DNA from: a virus | Taxonomy: Duplodnaviria > Heunggongvirae > Uroviricota > Caudoviricetes | DNA length: 40,159 bases | Direction: 5' to 3' (one strand) | Virus record (IMG/VR): IMGVR_UViG_3300029983_000009 | Coordinates: 128,001 to 168,159 of that record | Shown: positions 5,503 to 38,154 of the stretch, piece after piece | Numbering within the stretch: the first letter of the stretch is position 1 | Layout of the letters: every line of letters starts with the position of its first letter | Made by a program: the position numbers and the translations under genes | The notes under the pieces: generated by a model | Told to the model about the DNA's origin: nothing | The model's input: the letters and a program-made list of their open reading frames with translations, nothing else | The model's database searches: none

Positions 5503-5703
5503 ATGTTTGGAGAAATAAGAGAAAGAAATGTTTATTATTGTGAAGAATGCAATAAAATTCACAAAAGTTGTTATGAATTGGAGGATGAATATATGTGCTC
5601 AATTTGTTGGTCAGATGTAACCGTTATTGAAGAAATAAATATTAAAGCTTTCATAAGAAATAAAAGATTAAAAAGATTAAACGAAATATCCAATAATGAA
5701 TAG
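5503..5703 (+). CDS. small zinc-ribbon protein (CxxC...CxxC)
   Basis: YYCEECNKIH...CSICWSD gives two CxxC pairs. 66 aa, lying immediately upstream of the Dam-like methyltransferase. Confidence 0.5.
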   Translation: MFGEIRERNVYYCEECNKIHKSCYELEDEYMCSICWSDVTVIEEINIKAFIRNKRLKRLNEISNNE

Positions 5704-6544
5704 CTACATAAACACTCCTTTTTCTTATACTGGAAGTAAATATAAACTTCTTGAACAAATATTACCAGAAATGGATTATACTAAAGATTATTTTATTGAC
5801 TTATTTTGTGGAGGTGGATCTATTTATACAAATGTTGTTGATAAATATAAAAAAGTATTAGCAAATGATATAATATCAGATTTGGTAGGAATTCACAAAG
5901 GATTGCTTGAATCTGATGATATAATTGTAAAAACTAAAAAATTATGTCCAGATAAAGAAATTCAAAATGATTATCTAAATCTTAGAGAAAATTATAATAA
6001 TAACAAAACTCCTGAAGGACTATGGGCTTTGATGTTATGCTGTAATTCAAATCTTATGAGATTTAATAAGTCAGGAGATTTTAATCAAACTTGGGGAAAT
6101 CGATCCTGGAATAAGAGTACAGAAAAAAAAGTATTTGAGTTTACAAATTATATCAGGCAATATAAAAATAATATTAGTTTTAGTAATAAAAATTTCAATG
6201 ATATTAAAATATTAAAGCCTTCATTTGTTTATGCTGATCCACCATATGGATATTGTGAAGATACAGACGGAAACATCACAAAAAATCAAATATCAGAGGC
6301 TGGGTACAACGTTGTATATAAGCAAGAGATGGATATTCAATTACATGATTATCTTTTAAATTTGAGCAATAATGGATCAACTTTTATGATTAGTGGATTA
6401 TTAGAACATAACAATAAAAAATCATGGATATTAAATCAATTAATAAGAGATGGTTTCAGATATAAAGAATTAATGTTTGATTATAATAAAATATCTAAAA
6501 ATGGAGAAAAGAACTCAATTGAAATAATAGTAATGAACTATTAA
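5696..6544 (+). CDS. Dam-like N6-adenine DNA methyltransferase (D12 class, alpha group)
   Basis: N-terminal FSYTGSKYKLL and FCGGGS (AdoMet motif I) precede the catalytic VYADPPYGY (DPPY). This motif order is that of Dam/D12 methyltransferases. Confidence 0.8.
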   Translation: MNSYINTPFSYTGSKYKLLEQILPEMDYTKDYFIDLFCGGGSIYTNVVDKYKKVLANDIISDLVGIHKGLLESDDIIVKTKKLCPDKEIQNDYLNLRENYNNNKTPEGLWALMLCCNSNLMRFNKSGDFNQTWGNRSWNKSTEKKVFEFTNYIRQYKNNISFSNKNFNDIKILKPSFVYADPPYGYCEDTDGNITKNQISEAGYNVVYKQEMDIQLHDYLLNLSNNGSTFMISGLLEHNNKKSWILNQLIRDGFRYKELMFDYNKISKNGEKNSIEIIVMNY

Positions 6545-6778: not shown

Positions 6779-7239
6779 ATTTCAATATTAATCAGTGACA
6801 TTTCAATTACATTTAATTTTGATATTAAATTATTATGAACTTCTGTTGCTTCTTCAATAGTATCAAAAATCTTAGAATTCATATATTTAATATCAATTTT
6901 ATTATTTTCTCCTGAATATGAAACATATTCAATAGAAATAGTAAATAAAAATTTATCACTATCCATATTAAAATTTGATTTAATAATATGATCAATATTA
7001 TTTGTTCCGTCTTCATTTTTTAAATAATTGACAACATTTCCTGTTGATTTGTTATTACTAATAACATAATTATAAACCATATTCATTTTAACTTTTTGAT
7101 TCATATCACCACTAAACCAATTATAATCATGATTACAATTAAAAAATTTTATAATATTATCAGTTGTTATTTTTTCAATTTTACTAATATTTTTAATTGA
7201 ACTAGTATGTAAAGGTTCCCCATTAATTTTTATCCACAT
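6775..7239 (-). CDS. hypothetical protein, paralog A of a tandem pair (MWIKIN...PLH family)
   Basis: N-terminus MWIKINGEPLHTSSIKNISKIEKIT and C-terminus ...IEMSLINIEI closely match the adjacent ORF. Confidence 0.55.
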   Translation of the reverse strand: MWIKINGEPLHTSSIKNISKIEKITTDNIIKFFNCNHDYNWFSGDMNQKVKMNMVYNYVISNNKSTGNVVNYLKNEDGTNNIDHIIKSNFNMDSDKFLFTISIEYVSYSGENNKIDIKYMNSKIFDTIEEATEVHNNLISKLNVIEMSLINIEI

Positions 7240-7251
7240 ATTGTTATATTG

Positions 7252-7707
7252 TTATATTTTAATATTACTTACTGACATTTCAATATAGTTCATTTTTGAT
7301 AATAAAAAGTCTTGTGATTTTTCAGAATCTTCAAAAGTATCATATATTTCTGATGATATTTTATATATTTCATCATCATTCATTTTTTTATAATTAACTT
7401 CAAATAAAAATTTGTCACTATCCATTTTTATATTTGAATTTTTCCTAATTATATTTTCAGTCAATTCTTCTTTTTCAATATGCCATAGATCACCTGTACT
7501 GTTTTGTTTGGCGTGTTTATATACACGTTCTAATCTTAAACCAAGTTCAGTATTATCAGCAGAATTTCTATAACGCATATCTGATAAATTAAATTTGTGA
7601 TACGCATCATAAAAATTATTAATATCATCACTAGTAATTTTTTCAATTTTACTAACGTTTAAGATTAAACTCATATGTAAAGGCACATCATTAATTTTTA
7701 TCCACAT
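7252..7707 (-). CDS. hypothetical protein, paralog B of a tandem pair (MWIKIN...PLH family)
   Basis: MWIKINDVPLHMSLILNVSKIEKIT ... YIEMSVSNIKI. Preceded by two TAnnTTTG boxes. Confidence 0.55.
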   Translation of the reverse strand: MWIKINDVPLHMSLILNVSKIEKITSDDINNFYDAYHKFNLSDMRYRNSADNTELGLRLERVYKHAKQNSTGDLWHIEKEELTENIIRKNSNIKMDSDKFLFEVNYKKMNDDEIYKISSEIYDTFEDSEKSQDFLLSKMNYIEMSVSNIKI

Positions 7708-7736
7708 AATATTTAAGTTTTAATTGATTAATAGTA

Positions 7737-13925: not shown

Positions 13926-14897
13926 ATGAAAGAATTTGAAAATGTCGATTTATTCGACGCAATTGACGCACAAAGCGAAACTCTAGATTTTCTAGAAAAA
14001 AAAGGCGGTAGTTTAGATGGTATTTATCGTCCAAAAATTACTGACAAAAAGAAAGGTTATGTTGCTACTATTAGGTTTTTACCTAATTTAACAAAAGATG
14101 GTAAAGTATCTTTATCTGCAATTGAAAAACATCAGCATTATGTTGATTTTAAAAATCATCCAGAACTTCAAGGTTACTATGATTGTATGAAAAATTTCAC
14201 AGATAAATGTGATATTTGTACTATGTATTGGAAGTTGAAAAACTCAAAAAACGCATCTGAAGTTGAAAAAGCTGAATTGATTAGTAGAAGTACTAAGTAT
14301 TATTCATATATTTTAGTAATTGAAGATGAACAAAATCGTGATTCAGAAGGTAAGATTTTAATCTATCCTTATGGTTACAAAATCAAAGAAAAAATCAAAG
14401 ATCAAAAAGATGGTATCTCAGGTGATCCTTGCAATGTATTTGATTTGGCGAATGGTAAAGACTTCAAATTAGTTATGAAACAACTTGGTGAATATCCTAA
14501 TTATGATTCTAGTACTTTCTTGGAAGTATCTCCTATCAAAATTATGACTCCAAAAGGATTAGCTAAGGTTCCAGTTGAAGTTGATGAAAAAACAGGAAAA
14601 AATAGAATTACTAATCCTAAAGTTAAAGAAAAAGTAATGTCATTTTTGAAAGAACGTACTGTTGATCTTGAAGATCATCAACCAAAAGAATGGCAAGCTG
14701 AAGATAAATATAAAGTATCTCAAATACTTGATATAATTTCTGGCAATGAAACATCATTTGCAAAGAAAGAAGCTGAAAACTCATCACATGATAATGTTTC
14801 TACAAAAGAATCAAAAAATGTTAAAAGCAATGAAGATACTTTTGGTGGAGATGATGATGATGCAAATAATTTCTTTGACATTGACAGTGAAGAATAA
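13926..14897 (+). CDS. T4 gp32-type single-stranded DNA-binding protein
   Basis: VATIRFLP matches the AVIRFLP motif of gp32. H-x17-C-x7-C-x2-C (HQHYVDFKNHPELQGYYDCMKNFTDKCDIC) matches the gp32 zinc site. The region YYSYILVIEDE..EGKILIYPYGYKIKEKI matches SYWANILVVKDP..EGKVFKYRFGKKIWDKI. Acidic tail DDDDANNFFDIDSEE. Confidence 0.85.
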   Translation: MKEFENVDLFDAIDAQSETLDFLEKKGGSLDGIYRPKITDKKKGYVATIRFLPNLTKDGKVSLSAIEKHQHYVDFKNHPELQGYYDCMKNFTDKCDICTMYWKLKNSKNASEVEKAELISRSTKYYSYILVIEDEQNRDSEGKILIYPYGYKIKEKIKDQKDGISGDPCNVFDLANGKDFKLVMKQLGEYPNYDSSTFLEVSPIKIMTPKGLAKVPVEVDEKTGKNRITNPKVKEKVMSFLKERTVDLEDHQPKEWQAEDKYKVSQILDIISGNETSFAKKEAENSSHDNVSTKESKNVKSNEDTFGGDDDDANNFFDIDSEE

Positions 14898-15063: not shown

Positions 15064-15420
15064 TTATGCAACTGCAGTTGTTGTAGTAGTTGTAATTGGC
15101 GCTAAAGTTGTTGTAGTTGTAGCTGGTGCTAAAGTTGTTGTATTAGTAGTAGTTGGATATGCATAAATACTAACTGTTCCTGTTACTACTGTATTACCAG
15201 ATAAATAACTATAATCAACATAAACATCATTATCAACTGGTAATGTAGTTCCTGTAATCATTTGATCATCTATAGTTCTCATTCCAGTAATTTGAAATCC
15301 TGGATAATTTAAAATTTCTGATTGGTTTTCATGAAATTTATATCCTTCACCCCAAGGTGTGGTACTTCCAGTTGGTTGATAGCTAAAAAATGCTCCATCT
15401 ATAATTTTAGTTCTTTTCAT
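15064..15420 (-). CDS. small protein with a Thr-rich tail (TTTNTTTLAPATTTTTLAPITTTTTT)
   Basis: ORF. Its low-complexity tail resembles the fibre linkers. Confidence 0.5.
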   Translation of the reverse strand: MKRTKIIDGAFFSYQPTGSTTPWGEGYKFHENQSEILNYPGFQITGMRTIDDQMITGTTLPVDNDVYVDYSYLSGNTVVTGTVSIYAYPTTTNTTTLAPATTTTTLAPITTTTTTAVA

Positions 15421-16398: not shown

Positions 16399-16719
16399 AT
16401 GAAATATATTAAATCATTTGAAAAAAAATTAACTTTAGAAGAAAAAGACAGAATAGGACATTATGTTATAATAAATCCTATACATGCTACTCCTAATGAA
16501 AGAAAATTTTTTAATAATAATATTGGTAAAATAGTAGGAATAAATATAAATCCAATTGGAAAAGAGAACTTAATAAAAGTAGAATACGATAAAGATATAA
16601 TTCCTTTTAATGTAATATTAGGTAAAGATAATACATATTTAGTTAAAAATTACGAAATAACAAATGAAAATCAAGATGAATTGAAATCTATATTATCATC
16701 AAAAAAATTCAATTTATAA
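16399..16719 (+). CDS. MKxIKTYE...KFN(I/L) family protein
   Basis: MKYIKSFEKK ... KKFNL. Carries the G(D/H)YV small-domain subfamily motif. Confidence 0.6.
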   Translation: MKYIKSFEKKLTLEEKDRIGHYVIINPIHATPNERKFFNNNIGKIVGININPIGKENLIKVEYDKDIIPFNVILGKDNTYLVKNYEITNENQDELKSILSSKKFNL

Positions 16720-17001
16720 ATGAAACACCTTAAAACATATGAAATGGTTCATACATATCCAAAAGAAGGAGATTATGTAATAATTAAATCTGAACAATAT
16801 ATAACCAAAAACCCAGAATTTTACGAAGAATCAAAGAATAAAATTTTTAAAATTGATTCTATCGAAGATGATTATCATTTTTTTATATATTGTAAGTCAA
16901 TAGGATATACTGCAGAATTTCCAATGTCAGAATTGAAATATTGGTCTGATAACGAAGATGAATTAAAAGTTTATCTTGATACAAATAAATTCAATCTATA
17001 A
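16720..17001 (+). CDS. MKxIKTYE...KFN(I/L) family protein
   Basis: MKHLKTYEMV ... NKFNL. GDYVII motif. Confidence 0.6.
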   Translation: MKHLKTYEMVHTYPKEGDYVIIKSEQYITKNPEFYEESKNKIFKIDSIEDDYHFFIYCKSIGYTAEFPMSELKYWSDNEDELKVYLDTNKFNL

Positions 17002-17002
17002 T

Positions 17003-17464
17003 ATGAAATATATTAAAACATATGAAAAAAAGACAATGAAGATTAGTGATTTAAAAAAATCTAATAACACATTATATACCATAGCTAATAGATTTAAAAA
17101 CCTTTTATCAGAAATTAAAAAATTAGAAATAACAGAGGAAAATAAAACTACTCTTAATATGAGAATTGATTCATATGAAAAGATTATTATAGATTATAAT
17201 TATTACTCAGATTGCTTATTTGAAATTGTATTATATTTAGATTTTGATTATAACTATAGATTAGATACTGTTATTCAAGTAAAATCGGTATATAATCAAA
17301 TTCTATATGATTTAATAAATTCAATTTTTAATATTTATATGATATACAATAGTAATAATAATTTTGGTACTTATATAATACCGTCAGATAAAATTATTGA
17401 CGGATTGACTAATTTAGAAAAAAGTTTTTATGCAACAATAAATTCTGAAAAATTCAATTTATAA
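17003..17464 (+). CDS. MKxIKTYE...KFN(I/L) family protein
   Basis: MKYIKTYEKK ... EKFNL. The ATG at 17003 lies 2 nt after the upstream stop. The track ORF starts earlier, at 16976. Confidence 0.55.
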   Translation: MKYIKTYEKKTMKISDLKKSNNTLYTIANRFKNLLSEIKKLEITEENKTTLNMRIDSYEKIIIDYNYYSDCLFEIVLYLDFDYNYRLDTVIQVKSVYNQILYDLINSIFNIYMIYNSNNNFGTYIIPSDKIIDGLTNLEKSFYATINSEKFNL

Positions 17465-17465
17465 A

Positions 17466-17813
17466 ATGAAACATATCAAAACATATGAAAATATTAGTAA
17501 TTATGAAATAAAAATAGGAGATTATGTATTAGCATATATTCAAGGATATAGTGGGATGGATGCTAAAGAATTTATGCATTTTATAAATAATAATATTGGA
17601 ATAATTATAGAAATAGAAAATCCTGATAAAAAGTTTGATAATGTATCAATAGAATATAAAAATGTACCTGAAGATATACGTCATCCATGGTTTAGATATG
17701 ATGAAATAAATGATAAAATATTCAAAAAAGTTAGATATGGAAGAATAGTAGCAAACTCTATAAATAAAGAAGATGTCGAAGGAATATTAATGACAAAAAA
17801 ATTCAATATATGA
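17466..17813 (+). CDS. MKxIKTYE...KFN(I/L) family protein
   Basis: MKHIKTYENI ... KKFNI. GDYVLAYI motif. Paralogous to the minus-strand member at 25401..25736. Confidence 0.6.
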   Translation: MKHIKTYENISNYEIKIGDYVLAYIQGYSGMDAKEFMHFINNNIGIIIEIENPDKKFDNVSIEYKNVPEDIRHPWFRYDEINDKIFKKVRYGRIVANSINKEDVEGILMTKKFNI

Positions 17814-18220
17814 TATATATTAAAGAGGATGAAAATACTGATGATAATATGGTTGGATATCCAAATTTGATACCAGGACAAATGTATATGGAAGATGGTA
17901 CAATTTGCTGTTACATAGGTAACAATAATATGTCAAAATATAATTTGGTATTTTTATTATTTCATTATGACAAAACAATAGATAATTATTTTTTCATTGA
18001 ATGGGTAAATTGGTTAAAATTTACTCCTCTTAATATTGATATTAAAGACTATATTATTAAAAATAACGTAGTACTTAAAACAATTGAATCTATAAAAAAG
18101 CATGAATTTTCTGGTAAAGAAAATGGAAATAGTTTAAATTTGATAAAAAATATTTATAATTCATTATTAGATGATATAGACATATCTATGTTTATAAATA
18201 TAAATAAATTTAATATATAA
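17810..18220 (+). CDS. KFN(I/L) family protein with a variant N-terminus
   Basis: MIYIKEDENT ... NKFNI. ATGA overlap with the upstream stop. Confidence 0.5.
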   Translation: MIYIKEDENTDDNMVGYPNLIPGQMYMEDGTICCYIGNNNMSKYNLVFLLFHYDKTIDNYFFIEWVNWLKFTPLNIDIKDYIIKNNVVLKTIESIKKHEFSGKENGNSLNLIKNIYNSLLDDIDISMFININKFNI

Positions 18221-18240
18221 AATAAATAAATAAATATAAA

Positions 18241-18501
18241 ATGTTAAAAAAATTCGAAAATTTCAATAAAATAACAGAAGATTTCAGACCTGGCATATCA
18301 GCACAAGCATTTTGGGAAAGCAAAGATGAATTGAGAAAAATAATAATTAACAATTTACTGCAAGACAAAACATTAACATTAGATAATTATATAAAATCAA
18401 ATCAATCATATATCAACAGACTTAGTATAGATGATAGAAAAGAGTTTGATGAAGTAATTGACAACTTAAATTTACCAGTTTGGCAAAAACAAAGAAGATA
18501 A
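18241..18501 (+). CDS. hypothetical small protein inside the array
   Basis: MLKKFENFNK... It lacks the KFNI end. Confidence 0.45.
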   Translation: MLKKFENFNKITEDFRPGISAQAFWESKDELRKIIINNLLQDKTLTLDNYIKSNQSYINRLSIDDRKEFDEVIDNLNLPVWQKQRR

Positions 18502-18506
18502 AAAAT

Positions 18507-18971
18507 ATGAAACACGTTAAAGTATATGAGTCTAAAGATGAAGAACAAATGAAAAAAGATCAAGAAAAAGTTGATTTACTAGGAGATTTGTTGAATGAAA
18601 ATCCAAATAATGAAACACATGATTTTTATGTATTTCTTGCATCAGATGTTTTCAAAGAAACAAAAAGTGGGTTATTTAAAAAGGAGTTAAACATTGAAAA
18701 TATGGTTAGAATAACACCTGACTATAACAGCGTAATGTCAATGGCTGGAATAGAAATGAGAGAAAGATTTCAACCAGACACAAAAATGTATCATATATGG
18801 TTACCAAAAGAAGAAAGAGAAGATATTGAAGGCAAAAGTTCAAGTACAATGGAACCTTGGTTAATCAAAATGATAGATAAGAATAAAAAAAGAGGAGGAG
18901 ATGAGCATGGTAAAAAAGTTTATAATGATGCAATTCAAAGAAGAAAAGATTTATCAAAATTTAATATATGA
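18507..18971 (+). CDS. MKxIKTYE...KFN(I/L) family protein
   Basis: MKHVKVYESK ... SKFNI. Start placed at the internal ATG at 18507, where the track ORF begins at 18480. Confidence 0.55.
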   Translation: MKHVKVYESKDEEQMKKDQEKVDLLGDLLNENPNNETHDFYVFLASDVFKETKSGLFKKELNIENMVRITPDYNSVMSMAGIEMRERFQPDTKMYHIWLPKEEREDIEGKSSSTMEPWLIKMIDKNKKRGGDEHGKKVYNDAIQRRKDLSKFNI

Positions 18972-19231
18972 AAATTAAAAAATTTAATGGGGTAAAAGAT
19001 AAATATTTATATGTATCTCCATTTACTGAAGAAGGTATTTATTATATTTGTAATGAATGCTATAGTAATAAATTAAGAATGATAAAAAAAGGAGGATTTC
19101 AAACTCCAAGTTACGAGTGTGATAATTGTGGTTCGACTGTTTATGCCCCAATGAATCTAACTCCTAATAGATACAAAGAATATCTAATAGATAAAATAAT
19201 TAGGAATAAAACAAAAAAATTCAACATATAA
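18968..19231 (+). CDS. KFN(I/L) family protein with a zinc-ribbon
   Basis: MKIKKFNG... with CNEC...CDNC and the end KKFNI. ATGA overlap. Confidence 0.55.
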   Translation: MKIKKFNGVKDKYLYVSPFTEEGIYYICNECYSNKLRMIKKGGFQTPSYECDNCGSTVYAPMNLTPNRYKEYLIDKIIRNKTKKFNI

Positions 19232-19233
19232 TA

Positions 19234-19614
19234 ATGGAAAAATACACTAAAATATATGAAGATATTAAAAAGGAAAAATGGGATAATTATTGTATAATTA
19301 TAAGTTATTCTAATGTAGATGATGGTGAAGATCCAGATGTTTATCTTTGTGATAATGAAAATCAAGGATTTATATATCTTAAAAATTTAATTTATAATTC
19401 ATATCATAATCAAATTGATATAGATTTTTACAAATCAATGCTAATTGAATATAGTAGTGCAGAAAATCTTAATGACTTATATGAAATTTATATGTCTAGA
19501 AATAGAGATATAAAAGTTATGCTAATTTATTGTGAATTAAATGAAAACATTGAACTTGAAAAATGGATAATAGATTTTGAAATAGTAAACACATCTAGTA
19601 AATTTAATTTATAA
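19234..19614 (+). CDS. KFN(I/L) family protein
   Basis: MEKYTKIYED ... SSKFNL. Confidence 0.55.
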   Translation: MEKYTKIYEDIKKEKWDNYCIIISYSNVDDGEDPDVYLCDNENQGFIYLKNLIYNSYHNQIDIDFYKSMLIEYSSAENLNDLYEIYMSRNRDIKVMLIYCELNENIELEKWIIDFEIVNTSSKFNL

Positions 19615-19615
19615 T

Positions 19616-20281
19616 ATGAAACACATAAAATATTTTGAGAATATATATGATATAAATAAAGATGAAAATAGACTTTTAACTTTAAGCTATCATGAAAATG
19701 AATTAACTTTACCTATATTTAAAAAATTTCTTGATGAACATAAAAACATTAATATTAATGTTCAAAATGCTGATCGTGGTTGGACTCCTTTATTAATTGC
19801 GGTTAATAATAATGGATTTGAATTTGCTAAAATGCTTCTTGATAGAGGAGCAGATCCAAATATTTTTTCTAATACACCAGAACTTGGAAAATTTCCATTT
19901 GATAATGACTCAGTAATGAAAAAAATGATAGATACTGCACATGAATTAGATCATCAATCTAATGATTTTATAAATGAGTATTGGAATTTTTTAGATACAT
20001 TAATTCCATTTACAGATTTAGATAAACAGACAGAAATTTTCAAAAGAACTCCATTAATTATAGTTGCAGAAAATATAGGAATTAGAATAAATACTGAAGT
20101 TGGTTTAAAATTAATGAAAAATTTTCTGAAAGAAAAACCAAATTTGAGTATAAAAGATAATAAAGATTATGACTTTATAGATCATTTGATTAGAAAATCA
20201 AATTATGATATTATTGAAGAATTAAGTAATGAATTTAATAGTGTTGATTTATTATATAAATCTAAAAAATTTAATATATAA
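19616..20281 (+). CDS. MKxIKTYE...KFN(I/L) family protein carrying ankyrin repeats
   Basis: MKHIKYFENI. Ankyrin signature GWTPLLIAVNNNGFEFAKMLLDRGADPN. The end is KSKKFNI. Confidence 0.65.
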   Translation: MKHIKYFENIYDINKDENRLLTLSYHENELTLPIFKKFLDEHKNININVQNADRGWTPLLIAVNNNGFEFAKMLLDRGADPNIFSNTPELGKFPFDNDSVMKKMIDTAHELDHQSNDFINEYWNFLDTLIPFTDLDKQTEIFKRTPLIIVAENIGIRINTEVGLKLMKNFLKEKPNLSIKDNKDYDFIDHLIRKSNYDIIEELSNEFNSVDLLYKSKKFNI

Positions 20282-20711: not shown

Positions 20712-20939
20712 ATGGAAAATGGATTTTATTTTTGTGTTCTAAAACAATATCCTGATGAACAATTTAAAGTTAAAGTAGAATGGAGAGGAGTTAATAGGAC
20801 TAGAATAACTTTTCCAAACGGCACTCCAACTATAGATGAATGTGGATATTCTAAAATATACTTTACTGATGAATTTCTTAATGTATATGAATTATTAGAT
20901 TATATTCGGCCAATTAATCATGAAGATTTATTAGATTAA
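20712..20939 (+). CDS. hypothetical protein (75 aa)
   Basis: ORF 1 nt after the upstream stop. Followed by a terminator hairpin. Confidence 0.45.
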   Translation: MENGFYFCVLKQYPDEQFKVKVEWRGVNRTRITFPNGTPTIDECGYSKIYFTDEFLNVYELLDYIRPINHEDLLD

Positions 20940-20944
20940 AAAAT

Positions 20945-20985
20945 AAAGATTAGTAATAAATTACTAATCTTTATAAATTTTTAAT
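20945..20985. terminator. bidirectional hairpin between convergent genes
   Basis: AGATTAGTAA-taaa-TTACTAATCT followed by a T-rich tract. Confidence 0.45.
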
Positions 20986-22194
20986 CAATTCTTTAAAATG
21001 TTTATCAAATATAACTTTAACTTTATCATAATTAGACTTAGAGCATACTATTGAATCATGAACAGTAAATAATACAATATTAGGATACGTTTCATATATT
21101 TCTTTTAATACCACATTAAATATGAAATTACTTTCCATTTTTTGTAGTTCATGAGATAATTCTTTATAATTTTTTTTATTTTCTTTGAATTCTAAAATAT
21201 ATTCATAAACAGATGGATATAATTTCTGAAATATCTTATTCAATTTTTTGTTTGTTTTTAAATTATTACCAAACAATACTTTATACATAAGTTCTTTAGC
21301 TTCATATCTTTCAGTTAACTTAGAATTCTTAATAATATCTTCATATATTAATCCTTCTTTTACTAACTCAAAATATCTTTTCGTGTCACCATTTATTTCA
21401 GATAAATCTTTTTTTAATAGAACTGCAAAGAATAATGGCTGAGAGTTTTTAATGTCAATTTCAGAAATCATCTCATTCTCAATACTCAAATATTGTGTTC
21501 TAATTTCTTTTTTAAGAATTGTAAAATTTGTATGAAATCTACCATAATCATCAAAATTAAAATAAATACTTTTGGAATTTATATTTTCAATTGATATTAA
21601 ATTTTTCTGATATTTAGGCTCACACATTTCTCCGCTTTTTCTTCTATCATTAAGAAGCTTCAATGCACCATCATAATCAATATCAACCTTAGTTAATGAT
21701 TCTATTATTTTTACTCTTATATCTACTTGGATAGAGCTAAAACTCATCTCTGTGATAGATGTTTCATACCTATTATTGATTTTTTTCAATAACATATTAT
21801 CATAGTTTTTCCATCTTAATACATCATATGTATACTCAATATTTAATTTATATGTCTTAGTTTTCTTACCTACACAATAATTAGATACCATGCTCATAAA
21901 TCCTTGCTCACATAAATAATTTATATAATAATTATAATGTTCTCCATATCTTTTTTTTAATATGATTGATGATAATTTAAACTTAGAATCAGTATTATTA
22001 CTAAAATAATATTTGATAATAAGCTCATGTACAATATTAATAAGATATGAGCATTTTAAATTTATACCTTTATATTCTAATTTTTTTTGCTGAGTTAAAT
22101 ACTGAAAGTCCTTTGAAACAAATTGCCAAATATAATCACTAGATTTTGAAACCACTGAATGTAATTTTTTCTTTAATATAGAAGATTTGAGCAT
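20971..22194 (-). CDS. family A (Pol I-like) DNA polymerase, catalytic domain only, with no exonuclease domain
   Basis: 407 aa. Motif A ISEIDIKNSQPLFFAVLLKKD matches Klenow VSADYSQIELRIMAHLSRD. NGDTKRYFE matches EGKDIHRATA. Motif B TERYEAKELMYKVLFG matches SEQRRSAKAINFGLIYG. Motif C LFTVHDSIV matches MQVHDELV. The motifs fall in the order A, B, C with Pol I-like spacing. Confidence 0.6.
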   Translation of the reverse strand: MLKSSILKKKLHSVVSKSSDYIWQFVSKDFQYLTQQKKLEYKGINLKCSYLINIVHELIIKYYFSNNTDSKFKLSSIILKKRYGEHYNYYINYLCEQGFMSMVSNYCVGKKTKTYKLNIEYTYDVLRWKNYDNMLLKKINNRYETSITEMSFSSIQVDIRVKIIESLTKVDIDYDGALKLLNDRRKSGEMCEPKYQKNLISIENINSKSIYFNFDDYGRFHTNFTILKKEIRTQYLSIENEMISEIDIKNSQPLFFAVLLKKDLSEINGDTKRYFELVKEGLIYEDIIKNSKLTERYEAKELMYKVLFGNNLKTNKKLNKIFQKLYPSVYEYILEFKENKKNYKELSHELQKMESNFIFNVVLKEIYETYPNIVLFTVHDSIVCSKSNYDKVKVIFDKHFKELIKNL

Positions 22195-23989: not shown

Positions 23990-24033
23990 TTTATATATTT
24001 ATCTCTTAATTTTCATATATCACAAAAAACATG

Positions 24034-24041
24034 TATCTTTG
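24034..24041 (+). promoter_or_regulatory. TAnnTTTG box (TATCTTTG) driving the micro-ORF and repeat locus
   Basis: Identical octamer to 20360. No long ORF lies downstream. Confidence 0.35.
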
Positions 24042-24087
24042 CATTGTAATTAAAACTCAATATATAAACTCTAAAAAATTATTTAAT

Positions 24088-24123
24088 ATGATAAAAAGTT
24101 GTAATTCACCGCCAAGGCAATAA
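24088..24123 (+). other. micro-ORF 1, encoding MIKSCNSPPRQ
   Basis: ATG...TAA. GC-rich core TCACCGCCAAGG inside an AT-rich spacer. A TATCTTTG box lies about 50 nt upstream. Confidence 0.3.
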
Positions 24124-24304
24124 ACTATAAATTATAATAAACTAATAGATAAAGCCAAAAAAGCAAAATTATAGATAAATAATAGATAATATAGAAAATA
24201 TAGAAAATATAGAAAATATGAAAACTAGTTGCAACTCACCGCCAAGGTAATAGATATAAAATATAAAATATAAAATATAATAGATAAAGCCAAAAAAGCA
24301 AAAA
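24097..24304 (+). repeat. ~130-bp direct repeat in two copies, with embedded 9-nt and 8-nt tandem triplets
   Basis: AGTTGYAAYTCACCGCCAAGG...TAATAGATAAAGCCAAAAAAGCAAAA occurs at 24097-24168 and again at 24227-24304. Between the copies lie (AAAATATAG)x3 and (AATATAAA)x3. Confidence 0.6.
24218..24250 (+). other. micro-ORF 2, encoding MKTSCNSPPR
   Basis: Second copy of a ~130-bp direct repeat. Within the CNSPPR codons it differs from copy 1 only at two synonymous third positions (tgt/tgc and aat/aac). Confidence 0.3.
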
Positions 24305-24305
24305 T

Positions 24306-24344
24306 GAAAAAAAAGTCATTCTTAAATATAAGAATGACTTTTTC
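24306..24344. terminator. bidirectional hairpin serving the micro-ORF locus on the plus strand and gene 24362..24838 on the minus strand
   Basis: AAAAAAAAGTCATTCTTA-aatat-TAAGAATGACTTTTT. Confidence 0.5.
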
Positions 24345-24361
24345 CATATAATTTAATTGTA

Positions 24362-24879: not shown

Positions 24880-25404
24880 TTATATATTGAATTTATCAGC
24901 ATTTAATATATATGATAATTCTTTTTTTACATTAGAACTAAAATTGTCTGAATATTTTTTATAATATTCTTTAAATTTTGATAAATCTGTGAAATTAGAT
25001 ACTACTTCAATTATTTTATTATCCAATTTATCAATCAAATCAGGTTTATAATATTTATAAATTTTATCCTCTATCTTAAATATTGAATTTCTATTAACTT
25101 GTGTAGAAGAATTAATATTTTTTTCTTTAATAAATTTATCTATATTATTGTAAAAACTATTTTTATCAGAATATGAATTATTTATTCCAATAAGATTATT
25201 GAAAATTGTTCTATATTCAAATCTATCGTATTCTAGTTCAGATAAAGTTAAGATATCAATTTTATCTAAAATGTTCAATTTTTTTATATAATCAGTCATA
25301 AAATCAGTGAGTAAATTATCTTCTTCTGTAGTTAAATATTTATATTCTGAGCGTTTATTGTAATCAGATGACTCTCTTCCTTCAAATGTTTTTAAATATT
25401 TCAT
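24880..25404 (-). CDS. MKxIKTYE...KFN(I/L) family protein
   Basis: MKYLKTFEGR ... ADKFNI. Confidence 0.55.
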   Translation of the reverse strand: MKYLKTFEGRESSDYNKRSEYKYLTTEEDNLLTDFMTDYIKKLNILDKIDILTLSELEYDRFEYRTIFNNLIGINNSYSDKNSFYNNIDKFIKEKNINSSTQVNRNSIFKIEDKIYKYYKPDLIDKLDNKIIEVVSNFTDLSKFKEYYKKYSDNFSSNVKKELSYILNADKFNI

Positions 25405-25736
25405 ATATTAAATTTTTTTGTTTCTAACTTCATTTTTAATTCCTCAATTGTTTTACTATGTTCAACTATTCTACGAATATCAAAATTTCTTGTACATAAA
25501 TCATTTTTAATATTAAAATAACTTTTTATACTTTCAGGTACGTCATCATATAATACATAAATATCAGTATTTTTATGCCTATTATCAATACTGTATATTT
25601 TTCCAATCGTACTATTTATAAAATTTTCTATATCTGTCAGTTTTTGAGTATACTTAGATATATTAATTTTAACTAATACATAATCTCCAACTGTTAATTC
25701 ATCTTCTATATTTTCATAAAATTTAAAAATTTTCAT
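25401..25736 (-). CDS. MKxIKTYE...KFN(I/L) family protein
   Basis: MKIFKFYENI...GDYVLV... ending TKKFNI. ATGA overlap with the downstream member. Confidence 0.55.
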   Translation of the reverse strand: MKIFKFYENIEDELTVGDYVLVKINISKYTQKLTDIENFINSTIGKIYSIDNRHKNTDIYVLYDDVPESIKSYFNIKNDLCTRNFDIRRIVEHSKTIEELKMKLETKKFNI

Positions 25737-27337: not shown

Positions 27338-27362
27338 AATAAATAAATAAATAAAATAAAAT

Positions 27363-27677
27363 ATGAAAACAAAATCAGAAATAATTAAAGAAGAAATTGA
27401 ATTAAAGAAAAAAGAACTTGAACAATTAGAAAAAGAGGAAAAATTAGAATTACGACACTCAGTTATTAAAGATTTATCTGAATATACAACACAAGAAAAA
27501 TGTGATTATTTTGATAAAATATACAATCGTGCAGAACTAGTGTTAAAGTTAGCTGAAGAAGAATCAGATGAAGAAGACACTGATCGTGATTCATGGGAGA
27601 AAATGATGGAAACATTAGCAAGAGATACTGAGTCATTTTGGACTTATTATAATAATATATTTGAAGGAGACGAATAA
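27363..27677 (+). CDS. coiled-coil acidic protein, paralog 1
   Basis: MKTKSEIIKEEIELKKKELEQLEKEEKLEL...SFWTYYNNIF. Paralogous to the next ORF. Confidence 0.5.
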   Translation: MKTKSEIIKEEIELKKKELEQLEKEEKLELRHSVIKDLSEYTTQEKCDYFDKIYNRAELVLKLAEEESDEEDTDRDSWEKMMETLARDTESFWTYYNNIFEGDE

Positions 27678-27680
27678 AAA

Positions 27681-27989
27681 ATGAAAACAGAAATAGAAAG
27701 TCTTAGAGCAGAAATTGAAAGAAAGAAAGAAGAACTTGAACAATTAGAATTACAAGAAAAATTAGGAGTTAAAGGATTATCAATTAAAGATTTATCTGAA
27801 TTTACAGATTTTGAAAAATGTAATTTTTTTGATTATTTATATAAATCATCATTAGACAGATTAAATAATACAATAGAAAATGAATATGAAGACGATGATG
27901 ATGAACATTATGCATGGGAGGAATGTATGTTAATACTAGCTCGTGATAAAGATTCTTTTTGGACTTATTATAATAAATTAATAAAATAA
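27681..27989 (+). CDS. coiled-coil acidic protein, paralog 2
   Basis: MKTEIESLRAEIERKKEELEQLELQEKLGV...SFWTYYNKLIK. Confidence 0.5.
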   Translation: MKTEIESLRAEIERKKEELEQLELQEKLGVKGLSIKDLSEFTDFEKCNFFDYLYKSSLDRLNNTIENEYEDDDDEHYAWEECMLILARDKDSFWTYYNKLIK

Positions 27990-30205: not shown

Positions 30206-30211
30206 TAAATT

Positions 30212-30421
30212 ATGGACATTGAGACTGAAAAAATATTCAATGAAGTAAAAAAAATTATTCCTACATTAAATATCATCATTACTTATGATACTGGAATAAT
30301 ATTAATTGAAAATAATCTCATATATTCAACACAAGGTCCTATGACTGAAAAATTTATACAATGTTATCTATATGGATTATATGAAGGAATAATAGGAGGA
30401 CTTAAACACACAAAATATTAA
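30212..30421 (+). CDS. small protein, paralog 1 (MDIETEKI...IYSTQG family)
   Basis: Tandem pair with the next ORF. Shared motif NIIITYDTGIILIENNLIYSTQG. Confidence 0.5.
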   Translation: MDIETEKIFNEVKKIIPTLNIIITYDTGIILIENNLIYSTQGPMTEKFIQCYLYGLYEGIIGGLKHTKY

Positions 30422-30424
30422 AAA

Positions 30425-30646
30425 ATGAACGTAGAAACTGAAAAAATAATAACTGATATAAAAGAGGTAATATCATCATTAAATGTTATTATTACTGGTA
30501 ACACTGGAATAATATTGATAGACAACAAACTTATATATTCAACCCAAGGTGATGTGACAGATCAACTTATTCAAAGTTATTTATCTGGATTACATAGAGG
30601 AATATTAAGTGGAATGAAATATCAAAATAACCAAAAAATTAAATAA
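30425..30646 (+). CDS. small protein, paralog 2 (MNVETEKI...IYSTQG family)
   Basis: NVIITGNTGIILIDNKLIYSTQG. Confidence 0.5.
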   Translation: MNVETEKIITDIKEVISSLNVIITGNTGIILIDNKLIYSTQGDVTDQLIQSYLSGLHRGILSGMKYQNNQKIK

Positions 30647-31793: not shown

Positions 31794-31794
31794 G

Positions 31795-31866
31795 TTCTCA
31801 CACCAGGAATCGGACCTGGATTATTTGTTCCAAAAACAAATGTAATAGCCTTTATACCATATGAGA
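31795..31866 (-). tRNA. tRNA-like gene, anticodon UUG (Gln) read by eye, with an atypical T-loop (C55)
   Basis: Minus strand reads TCTCATA/TGTGAGA acceptor, 3-bp D stem, anticodon stem TTTGT/ACAAA with loop TTTTGGA, and T arm CCAGG-TCCGATT-CCTGG. 72 nt cloverleaf. Confidence 0.45.
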
Positions 31867-31874
31867 ATGTATTG

Positions 31875-31945
31875 TTGTTCATGAAAGGATCAAACTTTCT
31901 CTCCAAAATCCAAATTTTTGTGTGCTATCTTTACACCAATGAACA
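31875..31945 (-). tRNA. tRNA-like gene, anticodon UUG (Gln) read by eye, with a non-canonical T-loop
   Basis: Perfect 7-bp acceptor TGTTCAT/ATGAACA. Anticodon stem CAAAA/TTTTG with loop ATTTGGA. T arm GAAAG-TTTGATC-CTTTC. Confidence 0.4.
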
Positions 31946-31955
31946 ATATAATTTG

Positions 31956-32040
31956 TCGCCTTAGTGGGGTTCGAACCCACAAGCTCATATGAGCATCAGT
32001 TTCAAAGACTGACATGTTTAGCCAATTCCATCACAAGGCA
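31956..32040 (-). tRNA. tRNA-like gene with a long variable arm (type II) and apparent anticodon UUG
   Basis: Canonical T arm GTGGG-TTCGAAC-CCCAC. Anticodon stem TCAGT/ACTGA with loop CTTTGAA. Variable-arm hairpin GCTCA-TAT-TGAGC. Acceptor has G-U pairs at both ends. 85 nt. Confidence 0.45.
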
Positions 32041-32523: not shown

Positions 32524-32739
32524 TATTATTAAATAAAATTATTTATTATTATATTATAACTTTTTAATTTTTAAAACTCTCACTGAATTTTCATCAGTGA
32601 GAGGTTTTCAAAAATTATGAAATTAGAAATTAAACGTCAGTTGTTTCACAACAAGTAGTAGACATTATAAAAGCACAACAAAGATAATACAAATATTTTT
32701 ATTGCGCAAGTTTTTTTATATATAAATATAAAATATTTT

Positions 32740-33171
32740 ATGAATCATATCAAATCATATAAAATATATGAATCAGAAGGATGGAATAAAGATGTTGACT
32801 GGAAATATGTCATAGAACATCCTGATGATAAAAGTGATGAAGCAAGTTTAATTAGAGATTTACAGGAAAAACTAGATGATGTGATATCTATGTTAGATAA
32901 TTATAACATATTCGAAATTGTTAATATTAAAGGAAATGATTTAGATTATGGTTCTTATGCGATAGTTAGTATATTTGATAAAAACTATAAAATAAGTGAA
33001 GTATATTCAATAGATAAATTATGCATTGAAGATTTTCCAATAAATAATCCTAATGAAGATGAAACAACTGGATATATAGGAGATACAAATGAAATAGCAG
33101 AATTATTAAATATGATTTATAAATCTGGCGGAATGGAAATATACCAATCAATAAAAAAATATAATATATAA
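32740..33171 (+). CDS. family-related protein, tandem paralog 1 (MNHIKSYKIYE...KKYNI)
   Basis: Paralog of the next ORF. Shares EASLI..L.E.LD and FPINN with it. The end is KKYNI. Confidence 0.55.
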   Translation: MNHIKSYKIYESEGWNKDVDWKYVIEHPDDKSDEASLIRDLQEKLDDVISMLDNYNIFEIVNIKGNDLDYGSYAIVSIFDKNYKISEVYSIDKLCIEDFPINNPNEDETTGYIGDTNEIAELLNMIYKSGGMEIYQSIKKYNI

Positions 33172-33175
33172 AAAT

Positions 33176-33622
33176 ATGAAGCACTTAAAACAGTATAAAA
33201 TATATGAGGCAGGAGAATGGAGCAGAGGGATTAATTGGGAATATGTCAAAGAAAATCCAGATGATGACAGTGAAGAAGCAAGTTTAATTAAATATTTAGA
33301 AGAAAGATTAGATTATATAATTTCAAATTTAGATGACGATAACATATTAAAAATTGATGATATCAGGGGACATGATTTATATCAAGGTGCTTATGCATTA
33401 GTTAAAATATTTGGGGTAAGATATACTATATGGAACACTGGCGCTCAATCAGGAGGATCAGAAGATACATTATATATTGAAGGATTTCCGATAAATAATC
33501 TTGATGAAGATTCAAATCCTGGATTTATTGGTGTTCCTAATGATATATATGATTTATTGAATTGTATTTATCAAGTTGGAGGAATAGAAATATATAAAAC
33601 AACAAAAAAATATAATATCTAA
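33176..33622 (+). CDS. family-related protein, tandem paralog 2 (MKHLKQYKIYE...KKYNI)
   Basis: See the previous ORF. Confidence 0.55.
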   Translation: MKHLKQYKIYEAGEWSRGINWEYVKENPDDDSEEASLIKYLEERLDYIISNLDDDNILKIDDIRGHDLYQGAYALVKIFGVRYTIWNTGAQSGGSEDTLYIEGFPINNLDEDSNPGFIGVPNDIYDLLNCIYQVGGIEIYKTTKKYNI

Positions 33623-33623
33623 C

Positions 33624-34769
33624 ATGAAATATATATATTCATTCAAAGAAATAAATGAATCAAATTTAGAACAAACTAAAAATTATCTTACTATATTATT
33701 TGAAAATGAAAATTGGAAAATTGAAAAAGCTAATTCATTTGAAGCATTAACTGAGTGGTCAGAAGATGGTAATATTAATATGAGTTCATATAAAGGAAAT
33801 TTTGAGAATCTTTTTTTAAATACAAACAAAAAAACTGATGATAAAATAGTATTTGATTTTGATAGAGGTGATTTTTATACATTAGATGACGATAATATTG
33901 ATTTGAAAGAAACAATTGAAGATAATACTGAACTACTAAATTTCTATGGAGAAAATCTTAACTGCAAAAATATTGTTAAAGATGATGATGAATATTGGTT
34001 AGTTATTGATGATTATAAATTCTTTGTTGACTATTTTAAGGTAGATAGCAACACATCAAATGATTTAATATCAACAGTTTTATCTGGTGATTCTTATGAT
34101 ATATTTGATTATCATAATACAGAGTTTAGTATCACTGAAAGCATGAAATTATCTAAAGATAATTTAGATTTAATTAAAATAATACTAGCACTTGAACTAA
34201 TTAATAATGGTTATGATTATGATATTGATGATATTGATGATTATTCTGATGCTGTTGATATAATAGAAGAGAATGAAATGGAAGAATTTAAAGATATTTT
34301 ATTAAATTGTATTCGTTCAGGACATGAATCTGCAGATGCTGATGAGGCTTGGAATGATATAATAAAAGAAGCATATTCATTCTTTAATATATTAAAAGAT
34401 TCTAATAAATGGGAATATCATAATAATAGTAAAGAAAAAATGCTATGGATAAAATTTGAAAATTCAACTGACGCATACAAAGCAAAATTTATAATTAATA
34501 AATATGATGATAGTTATCAAGATGATGTGATTAATTATTCACAACCTTACTATGGTTATACTGGAGACATTAAAAATATAATTGAAACTTTCAATGAAGT
34601 CTTACCAGATAAAATATATGAATATGGTAGTGATACAGTAGATAGAGACGATATTAGTGATTCTTATGATATATTCACAGAACAAAAAGAGAAAAATCCT
34701 GATATAAAAGTATCTGACATAATTGAAAATTTAAAAATGTATTTAGATACTAAAAAATTTAACATATAA
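33624..34769 (+). CDS. KFN(I/L) family protein, large and acidic (381 aa)
   Basis: MKYIYSFKEINE ... TKKFNI. D/E-rich. Confidence 0.55.
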   Translation: MKYIYSFKEINESNLEQTKNYLTILFENENWKIEKANSFEALTEWSEDGNINMSSYKGNFENLFLNTNKKTDDKIVFDFDRGDFYTLDDDNIDLKETIEDNTELLNFYGENLNCKNIVKDDDEYWLVIDDYKFFVDYFKVDSNTSNDLISTVLSGDSYDIFDYHNTEFSITESMKLSKDNLDLIKIILALELINNGYDYDIDDIDDYSDAVDIIEENEMEEFKDILLNCIRSGHESADADEAWNDIIKEAYSFFNILKDSNKWEYHNNSKEKMLWIKFENSTDAYKAKFIINKYDDSYQDDVINYSQPYYGYTGDIKNIIETFNEVLPDKIYEYGSDTVDRDDISDSYDIFTEQKEKNPDIKVSDIIENLKMYLDTKKFNI

Positions 34770-34770
34770 T

Positions 34771-35259
34771 ATGATAACAAAATTTAATAAATTTACTCTA
34801 AATGAAACTATGATATCACATGATACAAATGAATTACATAGTGGCAGTTATTTATCATTAGAAAGATTAGAAAATGGTAATTTAAAAATATCATTAACTG
34901 AAGAAGGCAAAGAAAAAATAGCTGAAGATGATATAAGTGATTCAGAATTTTGGGATTATTTTGAAGATATAACAGGAAATTCTGGATTGGTATATTTTAA
35001 TGATATATCAGAACTTGGTATTATGATGGAAGCTCCTGGAATCACAATTGGATATTATTATAACGATGATGGAGAATATACAGATGAAGGAAATGAAGAT
35101 TGGTCTGAAGTTTTTTATTATGGAGATTCTGCTATTAGGGATTTCACAGAAGAATTAAAAAATAATGGAGAAGTAATATTTCAAACATCTGGTGTATTAA
35201 CTCCTGAAGAATTTGACGAATTTAAATTGAATAAAACTGCAAACAAATTTAATTTATGA
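34771..35259 (+). CDS. KFN(I/L) family protein
   Basis: MITKFNKFTLNE ... ANKFNL. ATGA overlap with the next gene. Confidence 0.55.
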   Translation: MITKFNKFTLNETMISHDTNELHSGSYLSLERLENGNLKISLTEEGKEKIAEDDISDSEFWDYFEDITGNSGLVYFNDISELGIMMEAPGITIGYYYNDDGEYTDEGNEDWSEVFYYGDSAIRDFTEELKNNGEVIFQTSGVLTPEEFDEFKLNKTANKFNL

Positions 35260-35588
35260 TAACAAATTTTAAAATATTTGAAACTAATGATATTCCATAT
35301 TTTTCAGTAGGTGATGAAGTTACTTGTATTGATGATGTACCTTGGATAGATGGAGATAGTGGTTATCCAGTAATAGGAGAGAAATATTTAGTTATTAGAA
35401 TTTACATAGAAAATGAAGATAATAATTACAATATTTATGAAATTGATCAAGAATTCGTAAAAGAATTAAATATAAACACTACTTATGTTGATGTTAAAAA
35501 TATTAAAACTGATATGATATTAAAAAACTGGTGTGCTAGTAGGTTCAATTCAGAAATAAGAACATCATCAAACAAATTTAATATATAA
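35256..35588 (+). CDS. KFN(I/L) family protein (GDEV small-domain subfamily)
   Basis: MITNFKIFETND ... SNKFNI. Confidence 0.55.
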   Translation: MITNFKIFETNDIPYFSVGDEVTCIDDVPWIDGDSGYPVIGEKYLVIRIYIENEDNNYNIYEIDQEFVKELNINTTYVDVKNIKTDMILKNWCASRFNSEIRTSSNKFNI

Positions 35589-37857: not shown

Positions 37858-38154
37858 ATGAAAATGATATACGATGAAAGAGAAACTAGCACAGCTAAAT
37901 ACATGAAAAATAGGACTGCATTGGGTGAATTATATAAACAATGTATTTCTTATGGATTAGATAATTGTGGTCCATTATGGATGGATTGGATGGATGCAGG
38001 TGATCAATTTACAAAAATCTCATATGATTATGATCACGGAGTTAAATTTAATCAAGAAACATTAACCAATTTATATAATATGAAATTACCAGAAAATCTA
38101 TTATTAGTTAAAAGAATAATAAAATTAACAAGACTTGGAGTTGAGAGCAATTAA
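37858..38154 (+). CDS. hypothetical protein (98 aa)
   Basis: ORF. Confidence 0.45.
   Translation: MKMIYDERETSTAKYMKNRTALGELYKQCISYGLDNCGPLWMDWMDAGDQFTKISYDYDHGVKFNQETLTNLYNMKLPENLLLVKRIIKLTRLGVESN

Follow-up and report, generated by a model that had tools for sequence, protein, structure and literature searches.

The question raised by this locus is what a small polymerase without an exonuclease does in a huge phage. The locus lies in a 40,159-nt stretch of DNA from a tailed virus (Caudoviricetes; positions 128,001 to 168,159 of IMG/VR record IMGVR_UViG_3300029983_000009), referred to as a whole as the window, and consists of a 1,224-nt open reading frame (ORF) encoding a protein of 407 residues. 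A preliminary description of the DNA, made from its letters alone, had assigned polymerase motifs A, B, and C to this ORF; the ORF and its motifs were confirmed, and the strand, which had gone unstated, is minus (Table 1). The segments quoted there are all present in the protein, namely EIDIKNSQPLFFAVLLKKD (residues 245–263), GDTKR (269–273), RYEAKELMYKVLFG (296–309), and VHDS (378–381), and GDTKR, listed as a Pol A motif, is not a canonical one. With a probability of roughly 0.6, we take the protein to be an active, proofreading-free primase-polymerase of the Pol I/T7 RNA polymerase (RNAP) superfamily, of the TV-Pol type, guided by a winged-helix DNA-binding domain.

The predicted structure is compact and of high confidence, and comprises a separate N-terminal domain of ~110 residues and a polymerase core of only ~275. 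Upon structure comparison, ~250–265 residues of the protein align with the polymerase domains of Pol I and T7 enzymes, the scores being 15.1 for Taq-type Pol I (260 residues, 3.7 Å), 15.0 for Aquifex Pol I, 14.6 for apicoplast Pol, 14.4 for T7 DNA polymerase, 13.7 for Klenow, 13.6 for yeast mitochondrial RNAP, 13.3 for Pol theta, and 12.8 for T7 RNAP. Every one of the 21 best matches is a family A DNA polymerase or a T7-like RNAP, and the protein thus passes the check for a palm-and-fingers fold that had been proposed for it. The best match in BFVD, with 37% identity and a TM of 0.73, was a 403-residue “Putative DNA polymerase I” from an uncultured marine phage. The modeled core proceeds from a helical thumb through a β-hairpin to the motif A strand and the catalytic D247 (codon GAC, positions 21456–21454), then through helical fingers (residues 251–369) that contain R296-x3-K300-x3-Y304-x3-F308-G309, to the motif C hairpin, after which the protein ends in a C-terminal helix. 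No nuclease family of Pfam scored above threshold in the protein, none was reported among 87 relatives (see below), and none was found in the seven ORFs within ~3 kb, consistent with the earlier statement that no exonuclease is fused or adjacent. As modeled, the protein is a right-hand polymerase that stands alone, belongs to the Pol I/T7 RNAP superfamily, and lacks an exonuclease. Its length of ~400 residues, previously read as that of a bare Klenow domain, is a coincidence, with the ~110 N-terminal residues predicted to form a winged helix. Among the best structure matches of this winged helix are those of ORC1, ORC2, and MCM8, together with a plasmid replication initiator, which provides a supporting hint of an initiator-like role.

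In sequence searches, the single protein had no significant match in Pfam, PHROGs, NCBIfam, PADLOC, or, by phmmer, PDB. Homologs sharing 25–48% identity with the window protein were aligned for conservation analysis, and none of these 87 family members matched PF00476 (DNA_pol_A), even at an E value of 0.1; likewise, the family profiles had no significant match, and no significant Pol A match, among PDB sequences. The preliminary description had named the lack of a significant Pol A profile match as grounds for giving up its assignment, and such a lack is formally what was found. The two best matches of the family profile among PDB sequences, both nonsignificant, were N4 RNA polymerase II (N4 RNAPII), spanning motifs B and C, and phage G20c Pol I, spanning “GRLHTNF”, motif B, and “VHDE”, all of them collinear. 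Comparison of the family by hhalign with single sequences of Pol I and T7 DNA polymerase aligned motif B alone (E 0.02–0.18), and comparison with the T7 RNAP sequence gave nothing relevant. The O-helix motif aligned, by hhalign and hmmsearch, to residues 748–811 of Klenow and 495–544 of T7 gp5, with residues 296–309 themselves aligned to Klenow 752–809, T7 DNA polymerase 513–533, and motif B of N4 RNAPII, and a “YP.V.EY” stretch past the O-helix also aligns with classical family A polymerases.

Eight residues (R219, H221, D247, Y284, K300, E354, H379, and D380) are invariant in 87/87 homologs, so that the earlier view of a stand-alone polymerase of family A/T7 RNAP type with all of its catalytic residues stands. 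The residues that follow the motif A Asp are conserved nearly as well (N250 in 81/87, S251 in 82/87, Q252 in 83/87, and P253 in 82/87), and T377 is also more than 90% conserved. Position 296 is Arg in 61 and Lys in 23 of the 87 sequences, and position 304 is Tyr in 48 and Phe in 32. As inferred from motif alignment rather than superposition, the Klenow equivalents would be R668 for R219, D705 for D247, H734 for Y284, R754 and K758 for R296 and K300, F762 for Y304, Y766 for F308, Q849 for E354, and H881-D882-E883 for H379-D380-S381. The fingers carry RxxxK, and no invariant Asp was found in them, with the invariant Y284 at the His of the Pol A “DIH” motif, and the hairpin that bears R219 and H221 resembles “TGRLSS” of Pol A and “TGRATH” of T7, aligning with the G20c Pol I segment given above. 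Compared to classical family A enzymes (E. coli Pol I Klenow, Taq, and T7 gp5), the protein retains the Arg hairpin, the motif A Asp, RxxxKxxx[FY]xxx[YF]G, and the HD of motif C in the same order and spacing. However, its core has ~275 residues as compared to ~410, it has no 3′–5′ exonuclease domain, even a vestigial one, and a predicted winged helix as its N-terminal domain, and it reads D-I-x-N-S-Q-P in place of D-Y-S-Q-I-E in motif A and HDS in place of HDE in motif C.

These characteristics fit TV-Pol, a family of 400–600 residues found in bacteroidetes, planctomycetes, verrucomicrobia, other bacteria, and viruses (Iyer, Abhiman and Aravind 2008, Biol Direct 3:39; PMC2579912). The TV-Pol core was described as a minimal form of Pol A/T7 RNAP, with a coiled-coil thumb, an Arg hairpin, two Asp residues in an RRM-like palm, and fingers with a helix-turn-helix (HTH) core bearing RxxxK and a conserved Asp, and it is never linked to nucleases (PMC2579912). 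A subset has an extra N-terminal domain (TV-PolN), predicted to be all-helical, and is encoded beside resolvases, lambda-type integrases, or transposases; one TV-Pol element lies inside phage Ma-LMM01 (PMC2579912). TV-Pols were predicted to combine primase and polymerase activity and, in 2008, to stand near the ancestral minimal form of Pol I-type DNA and T7-type RNA polymerases (PMC2579912). The window protein shares the size range, the minimal core, the Arg hairpin (R219), the two Asp residues (D247 and D380), each in or at the end of a β-strand, the RxxxK fingers, the lack of a nuclease domain, and an extra N-terminal domain of ~110 residues. Its family likewise occurs in Bacteroidetes, Planctomycetes, Verrucomicrobia, and phages, with integrase or resolvase neighbors in the bacterial homologs and none seen in the window. 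In contrast, no counterpart of the conserved fingers Asp was found in the family, where Y284 is invariant, and the huge-phage gene is solitary, stable, strongly constrained, and outside any recognizable mobile element. We are fairly confident that the protein belongs to TV-Pol, where it best fits the members that carry an additional domain at the N terminus; the assignment stays below certainty because no profile comparison tied the family directly to a published TV-Pol.

Rather than a truncated Pol I, the protein is part of a large family of its own, one consistent with TV-Pol, and bears a predicted N-terminal winged helix. An identical protein is present on 13 public contigs, and a first search returned 737 homologs, several on contigs of 346–711 kb. 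An exhaustive profile search against clusters at 50% identity detected 5,843 representatives with E ≤ 1e-3, of which 3,787 reached E ≤ 1e-10. The family has thousands of members of equal length. Among GenBank phages, only six carry the gene, all uncultured huge phages of 595–735 kb with proteins of 30–49% identity, and IMG/VR contributed 173 viral loci on contigs of up to 676 kb. From bacterial chromosomes, 80 loci were retrieved in Bacteroidota, Planctomycetota, Verrucomicrobiota, and Ignavibacteria; isolates carrying the family include Draconibacterium orientale (two copies), Rufibacter latericius, Segetibacter aerophilus, Flavobacterium cheonanense, and Empedobacter sedimenti. When the neighbors of the 80 bacterial loci were clustered and then annotated, a tyrosine integrase was found in 28 and a serine recombinase in 11, with an HTH_17 excisionase-like gene upstream of the polymerase, often directly, in ~14, and an AAA_24 ATPase and DUF3871 downstream in six. 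The bacterial layout of integrase, excisionase, and polymerase places the latter in the slot normally filled by a primase or Rep in small integrative elements.

A biochemical precedent is provided by CcPol-MP of SCCmec, an atypical member and the sole experimentally characterized enzyme placed in TV-Pol (Bebel et al. 2020, PMC7581432; Rice 2023, PMC10061031). CcPol alone is a primer-dependent DNA polymerase, and binding of the OB-fold protein MP makes it a primase that uses dNTPs (PMC7581432, PMC10061031), showing that a Pol A fold can prime de novo (PMC7581432). Both CcPol and the window protein are stand-alone A-family polymerase domains without exonucleases, CcPol-MP being encoded by a mobile element. 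They differ in that CcPol is recognized as “PolA” by domain databases, while the window protein is not matched by PF00476; in that E710 and F762 of Pol I are retained in CcPol as E174 and F225, while the window protein has Gln at the fifth position after the motif A Asp (D+5) and HDS in motif C; and in that CcPol needs MP and sits with the Cch2 helicase, while the window polymerase has no such adjoining partners, as judged by Pfam only in its flanking ORFs. By analogy with CcPol-MP, the window protein may serve as a primase-polymerase or in replication initiation. The winged-helix domain would bring the enzyme to a specific site or structure in the DNA, the core would then start a strand de novo and extend it briefly without editing, and the product would be passed to the phage replicative polymerase as a primer. 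Of the activities suggested previously, a specialized or primer-making polymerase lies nearest to this evidence, while a reverse-transcription-like enzyme found no support.

Several observations weigh against a primase-polymerase of the TV-Pol type. TV-PolN was predicted to be all-helical, whereas the N-terminal domain of the window protein is modeled as an α/β winged helix. Alignment by hhalign with ORF30 of Ma-LMM01, which lies beside IS-type transposases and is assumed to be the published TV-Pol, was not significant (E 0.054–0.06, with a single sequence and a seven-sequence profile), and only a short LQxxE stretch aligned. Primase activity is suggested by context and by CcPol, itself dependent on a partner, and no recombinase, helicase, OB-fold partner, nuclease, or repair gene adjoins the polymerase among the window ORFs scanned, including the seven flanking ORFs within ~3 kb. 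The settings of the polymerase, though partly conserved, differ among phage lineages, and these lineages have no single partner gene in common. Motif C is of the HD[S/C] form seen in T7-like RNAPs, and the only Pfam signals are subthreshold matches to RNA_pol. Finally, the gp32-type single-stranded DNA-binding protein noted in the preliminary description was confirmed 6 kb from the polymerase (Table 1), which makes it probable that the phage also encodes a conventional primase.

A bolder form of the same function, which we regard as possible but doubtful, is a self-sufficient, site-specific initiator-polymerase. The initiator-like winged helix and what would be the smallest known right-hand core (~275 residues) would start strands de novo without a partner, possibly from either NTPs or dNTPs, and the gene would be a core gene of huge phages serving origin priming or restart beyond a T4-like replisome.

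The choice of nucleotide also bears on an alternative that we consider unlikely, in which the protein is a minimal single-subunit RNAP whose winged helix reads a promoter and whose core transcribes a subset of phage genes, similar to N4 RNAPII or T7 RNAP, or makes RNA primers only. Position 381 is Ser in 82/87 homologs, Cys in 4, and Ala in 1, giving motif C as HD[S/C] in 86/87, as in T7 RNAP (HDS) and N4 RNAPII (HDC) and unlike the HDE of Pol A. Three relatives have local matches to PF00940 (RNA_pol) on motif C that score 12.5, 14.6, and 21.1 bits (E 1.6e-4 for the last) and so stay below the cut-off of 22, as compared to none with PF00476, although the window protein itself has no PF00940 match. 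The best, nonsignificant, PDB sequence match of the family profile is N4 RNAPII (gp15/gp16; PDB 6dt7), a reduced right-hand polymerase that, with T7-like RNAPs, shares TVHD[S/C] and a similar motif B. Motif A also lacks the canonical steric-gate Glu, the D+5 position being Gln in 83/87; with the S-Q pair aligned instead, a variable hydrophobic residue occupies the steric-gate position.

Other observations argue against an RNAP. In T7 RNAP, Y639 senses the ribose 2′-OH, and the Y639F mutant no longer discriminates NTPs from dNTPs. The counterpart of Y639 in the window protein, position 308, is Phe in 77/87 homologs and Tyr in 8. Judged from sequence, HDS and Gln would point one way in the choice between dNTPs and NTPs, and Phe308 the other. 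The top structure matches are DNA polymerases, and the GRxHTNF hairpin resembles that of DNA Pol A. A search of the window for repeated promoter-like elements of ~20 bp found none; a motif repeated at gene junctions there encodes conserved protein termini. N4 RNAPII has two subunits, unlike the window protein, and T7-type RNAPs are at least 800 residues long with a promoter-binding N-terminal domain and a specificity loop. Such a loop is missing from the window protein, 407 residues leave no room for a T7-type N-terminal domain, and its size is half that of the smallest known single-subunit RNAPs. Bacterial homologs, moreover, lie in tiny integrative elements at the usual primase or Rep slot.

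Also at odds with that bacterial integrase and excisionase context, which together with the fused winged helix indicates element replication, is a role in repair. Here the protein would be a primer-dependent, exonuclease-free polymerase similar to Pol theta or Pol nu, filling gaps or bypassing lesions or modified bases without priming. The lack of a proofreading domain is consistent with such a role, as are the two DNA methyltransferases and the glycosyltransferase of the window, by which the phage DNA may be modified, and the merely primer-dependent activity of CcPol alone (PMC7581432). However, in the structure comparison the scores of Pol theta and Pol nu do not exceed those of replicative Pol I enzymes, and no repair genes adjoin. 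The translesion role proposed earlier is, in our estimation, improbable.

A selfish TV-Pol mobile element, or the leftover of one, replicating itself in the phage genome and of no use to the phage, would account for some features of the gene. The polymerase is a lone minus-strand gene flanked by plus-strand blocks; it is the sole gene common to the window and the 735-kb phage LR756501 within ±12 kb; and its bacterial relatives reside in mobile elements, with a TV-Pol element known within phage Ma-LMM01 (PMC2579912). We nevertheless consider this very unlikely. No integrase, resolvase, or transposase was found among the window ORFs scanned, and no polymerase paralog in the window. Repeats around the polymerase look like AT-rich chance matches rather than convincing terminal repeats, and a 24-nt inverted repeat (20280–20303/22194–22217), tried as an element boundary, was rejected on finding that the segment it spans is not a unit in L001, a relative whose polymerase is 92% identical and whose neighborhood is collinear with the window. 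Between the window and L001, the ratio of nonsynonymous to synonymous substitution rates (dN/dS) of the polymerase is 0.085, the lowest among 12 neighboring genes, while its dS of 0.53 is like that of its neighbors; synteny around the polymerase is also kept in relatives of about 90% identity. Collinearity with L001, the neighbor-like dS, and the low dN/dS indicate that the gene is co-inherited and strongly constrained, and therefore neither a relic nor recently inserted. Within this lineage of huge phages, the polymerase gene is inherited vertically under strong purifying selection. A degenerate, inactive Pol I remnant, as had once been entertained and to which the lack of a Pfam, PHROG, NCBIfam, or significant PDB sequence match might point, is refuted by this dN/dS and by the catalytic residues invariant in 87 members, in keeping with the compact, high-confidence model and the thousands of family members of equal length.

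With primase-polymerase function as the preferred reading, the protein adds to a known, barely studied kind of enzyme, TV-Pol, and is not a new kind. The TV-Pol-like branch to which it belongs comprises thousands of clusters that are invisible to Pfam, NCBIfam, and PHROGs, and includes a strongly constrained, single-copy gene of 173 IMG/VR viral contigs and six published huge phages of 595–735 kb. The predicted winged-helix domain offers a concrete hypothesis of how a Pol A fold reaches its start site. A 275-residue core with a high-confidence model is suited to study of the minimum needed for templated synthesis, de novo initiation, and sugar selection, and could serve as a compact enzyme for biotechnology. 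An annotation as [quoted passage not shown] is preferable to “DNA polymerase I”.

The gene lies in a very AT-rich window (20–29% G+C) of normal coding density, in which its TAA stop codon is read under code 11. The stop codon is overlapped by an intrinsic-terminator-like hairpin with a predicted RNA fold of −13 kcal/mol, as compared to −3.5 ± 2.1 for shuffled sequences (z = −4.6; 0/200 shuffles equal it), which probably works in both directions between convergent genes; with fewer than three G-C pairs in its stem, it escaped a consensus terminator scan. The seven flanking ORFs within ~3 kb have no Pfam match, and the polymerase has no same-strand neighbors. Elsewhere, in ~40 viral loci (L121–L167), c1 lies directly upstream of the polymerase or is separated from it by a small ORF, and the order c1, (c5), polymerase, c2 is kept, where c1 encodes ~445 residues and c2 ~180. 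A homolog of c1 occurs in the window 13.5 kb away, and there is therefore no fixed operon. In a second phage lineage of ~16 loci (L108–L118, L122, L126, L128, L153, L156–L157, and L006), the polymerase gene precedes, on its own strand, a gene for a protein of ~950 residues (range 530–960, and 1,304 in L006), a candidate functional partner. Neither c1, c2, and c7 nor the large downstream proteins have a Pfam or PDB sequence match.

Table 1. Coordinates of the polymerase gene, its predicted domains, and other features of the window
Feature	Position	Strand	Remarks
Polymerase coding sequence, 407 residues	20971–22194	minus	Predicted winged-helix domain plus minimal family-A-like (TV-Pol-type) polymerase; ATG start, TAA stop
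N-terminal winged-helix-like α/β domain, residues ~20–131	21802–22137	minus	Candidate for TV-PolN; may bind DNA or an origin
Helical thumb, residues 133–206	21577–21798	minus	Helices 133–148, 157–167, 174–186, 192–206; called thumb by position ahead of the palm hairpin
β-Hairpin FNFDDYGRFHT, residues 212–222	21529–21561	minus	Strands 212–214, 220–222; bears invariant R219 and H221
Motif A, residues 241–256	21427–21474	minus	Strand 241–246 up to catalytic D247; then N250-S251-Q252-P253; helix from 251
Motif B/O-helix, residues 296–309	21268–21309	minus	R296-x3-K300-x3-Y304-x3-F308-G309
Motif C hairpin, residues 375–385	21040–21072	minus	T377-V-H379-D380-S381; strands 375–378, 381–385
Intrinsic-terminator-like hairpin	20937–20974	minus	Overlaps polymerase stop codon; perfect 14-bp stem, 4-nt loop, then U6
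gp32-type single-stranded DNA-binding protein	13926–14897		
c1 homolog, 444 residues	35653–36987	minus	No Pfam match; 50% identical to c1
KFN[I/L]-tail ORFs	16399–20281; 24880–25736; 33624–35588; 38919–40091	plus; minus; plus; plus	
Three-tRNA cluster	31795–32040	minus	ARAGORN: two tRNA-Gln(TTG), 31794–31866 and 31955–32040
CBASS inhibitor Acb3 homolog	38135–38896	plus	PF25187, E 1.5e-41
Group-1 glycosyltransferase and two DNA methyltransferases (N6_N4_Mtase, D12-class N6-adenine)	2227–3453; 3722–4495; 5696–6544	plus	Close together
Pentapeptide-repeat protein, 663 residues	11046–13037	minus	PF13599; gene contains GTTGTAGT-type repeats

Several further features of the window were observed. Fifteen otherwise unrelated ORFs of 87–390 residues, including two ankyrin-repeat proteins, share a C-terminal K-F-N-[I/L], and nine of these also bear M-K-[H/Y/I]-[I/L/V/F]-K-x-[Y/F]-E at or near the N terminus, a motif that appears similar to the T4 capsid-targeting sequence, MKTYQEFIAE. 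The corresponding DNA motif, AAATTTAATWTATAA, occurs 17 times as compared to 1.8 expected, and its variants are synonymous (TTT/TTC, AAT/AAC, and TAA/TGA), indicating selection on the peptide. The pattern is also conserved in L001, where 12 ORFs show it, but is missing from LR756501 (L087), and may represent a sorting, packaging, or degradation tag. One of the tailed ankyrin-repeat proteins (38919–40091, ending in KFNI) directly follows the Acb3 homolog.

The clustered glycosyltransferase and methyltransferases suggest that the phage DNA is modified. Between the two tRNA-Gln genes, a third tRNA (31875–31945) was found by Rfam and missed by ARAGORN. A 49-nt element whose core, TTGYAAYTCACCGCCAAGGYAATA, is rich in G+C occurs twice (24074–24122 and 24204–24252) in an otherwise AT-rich, gene-poor segment (23990–24361) and matches no Rfam family. 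Tandem gene or segment duplications of 71–83% identity lie at 32739–33622 (ORFs 32740–33171 and 33176–33622), 27355–27976 (ORFs 27363–27677 and 27681–27989), 30206–30631 (a 213-nt tandem pair), and 6779–7722, and indicate local paralog expansion. The repeats of the pentapeptide-repeat gene recur in a 118-residue minus-strand ORF at 15064–15420.

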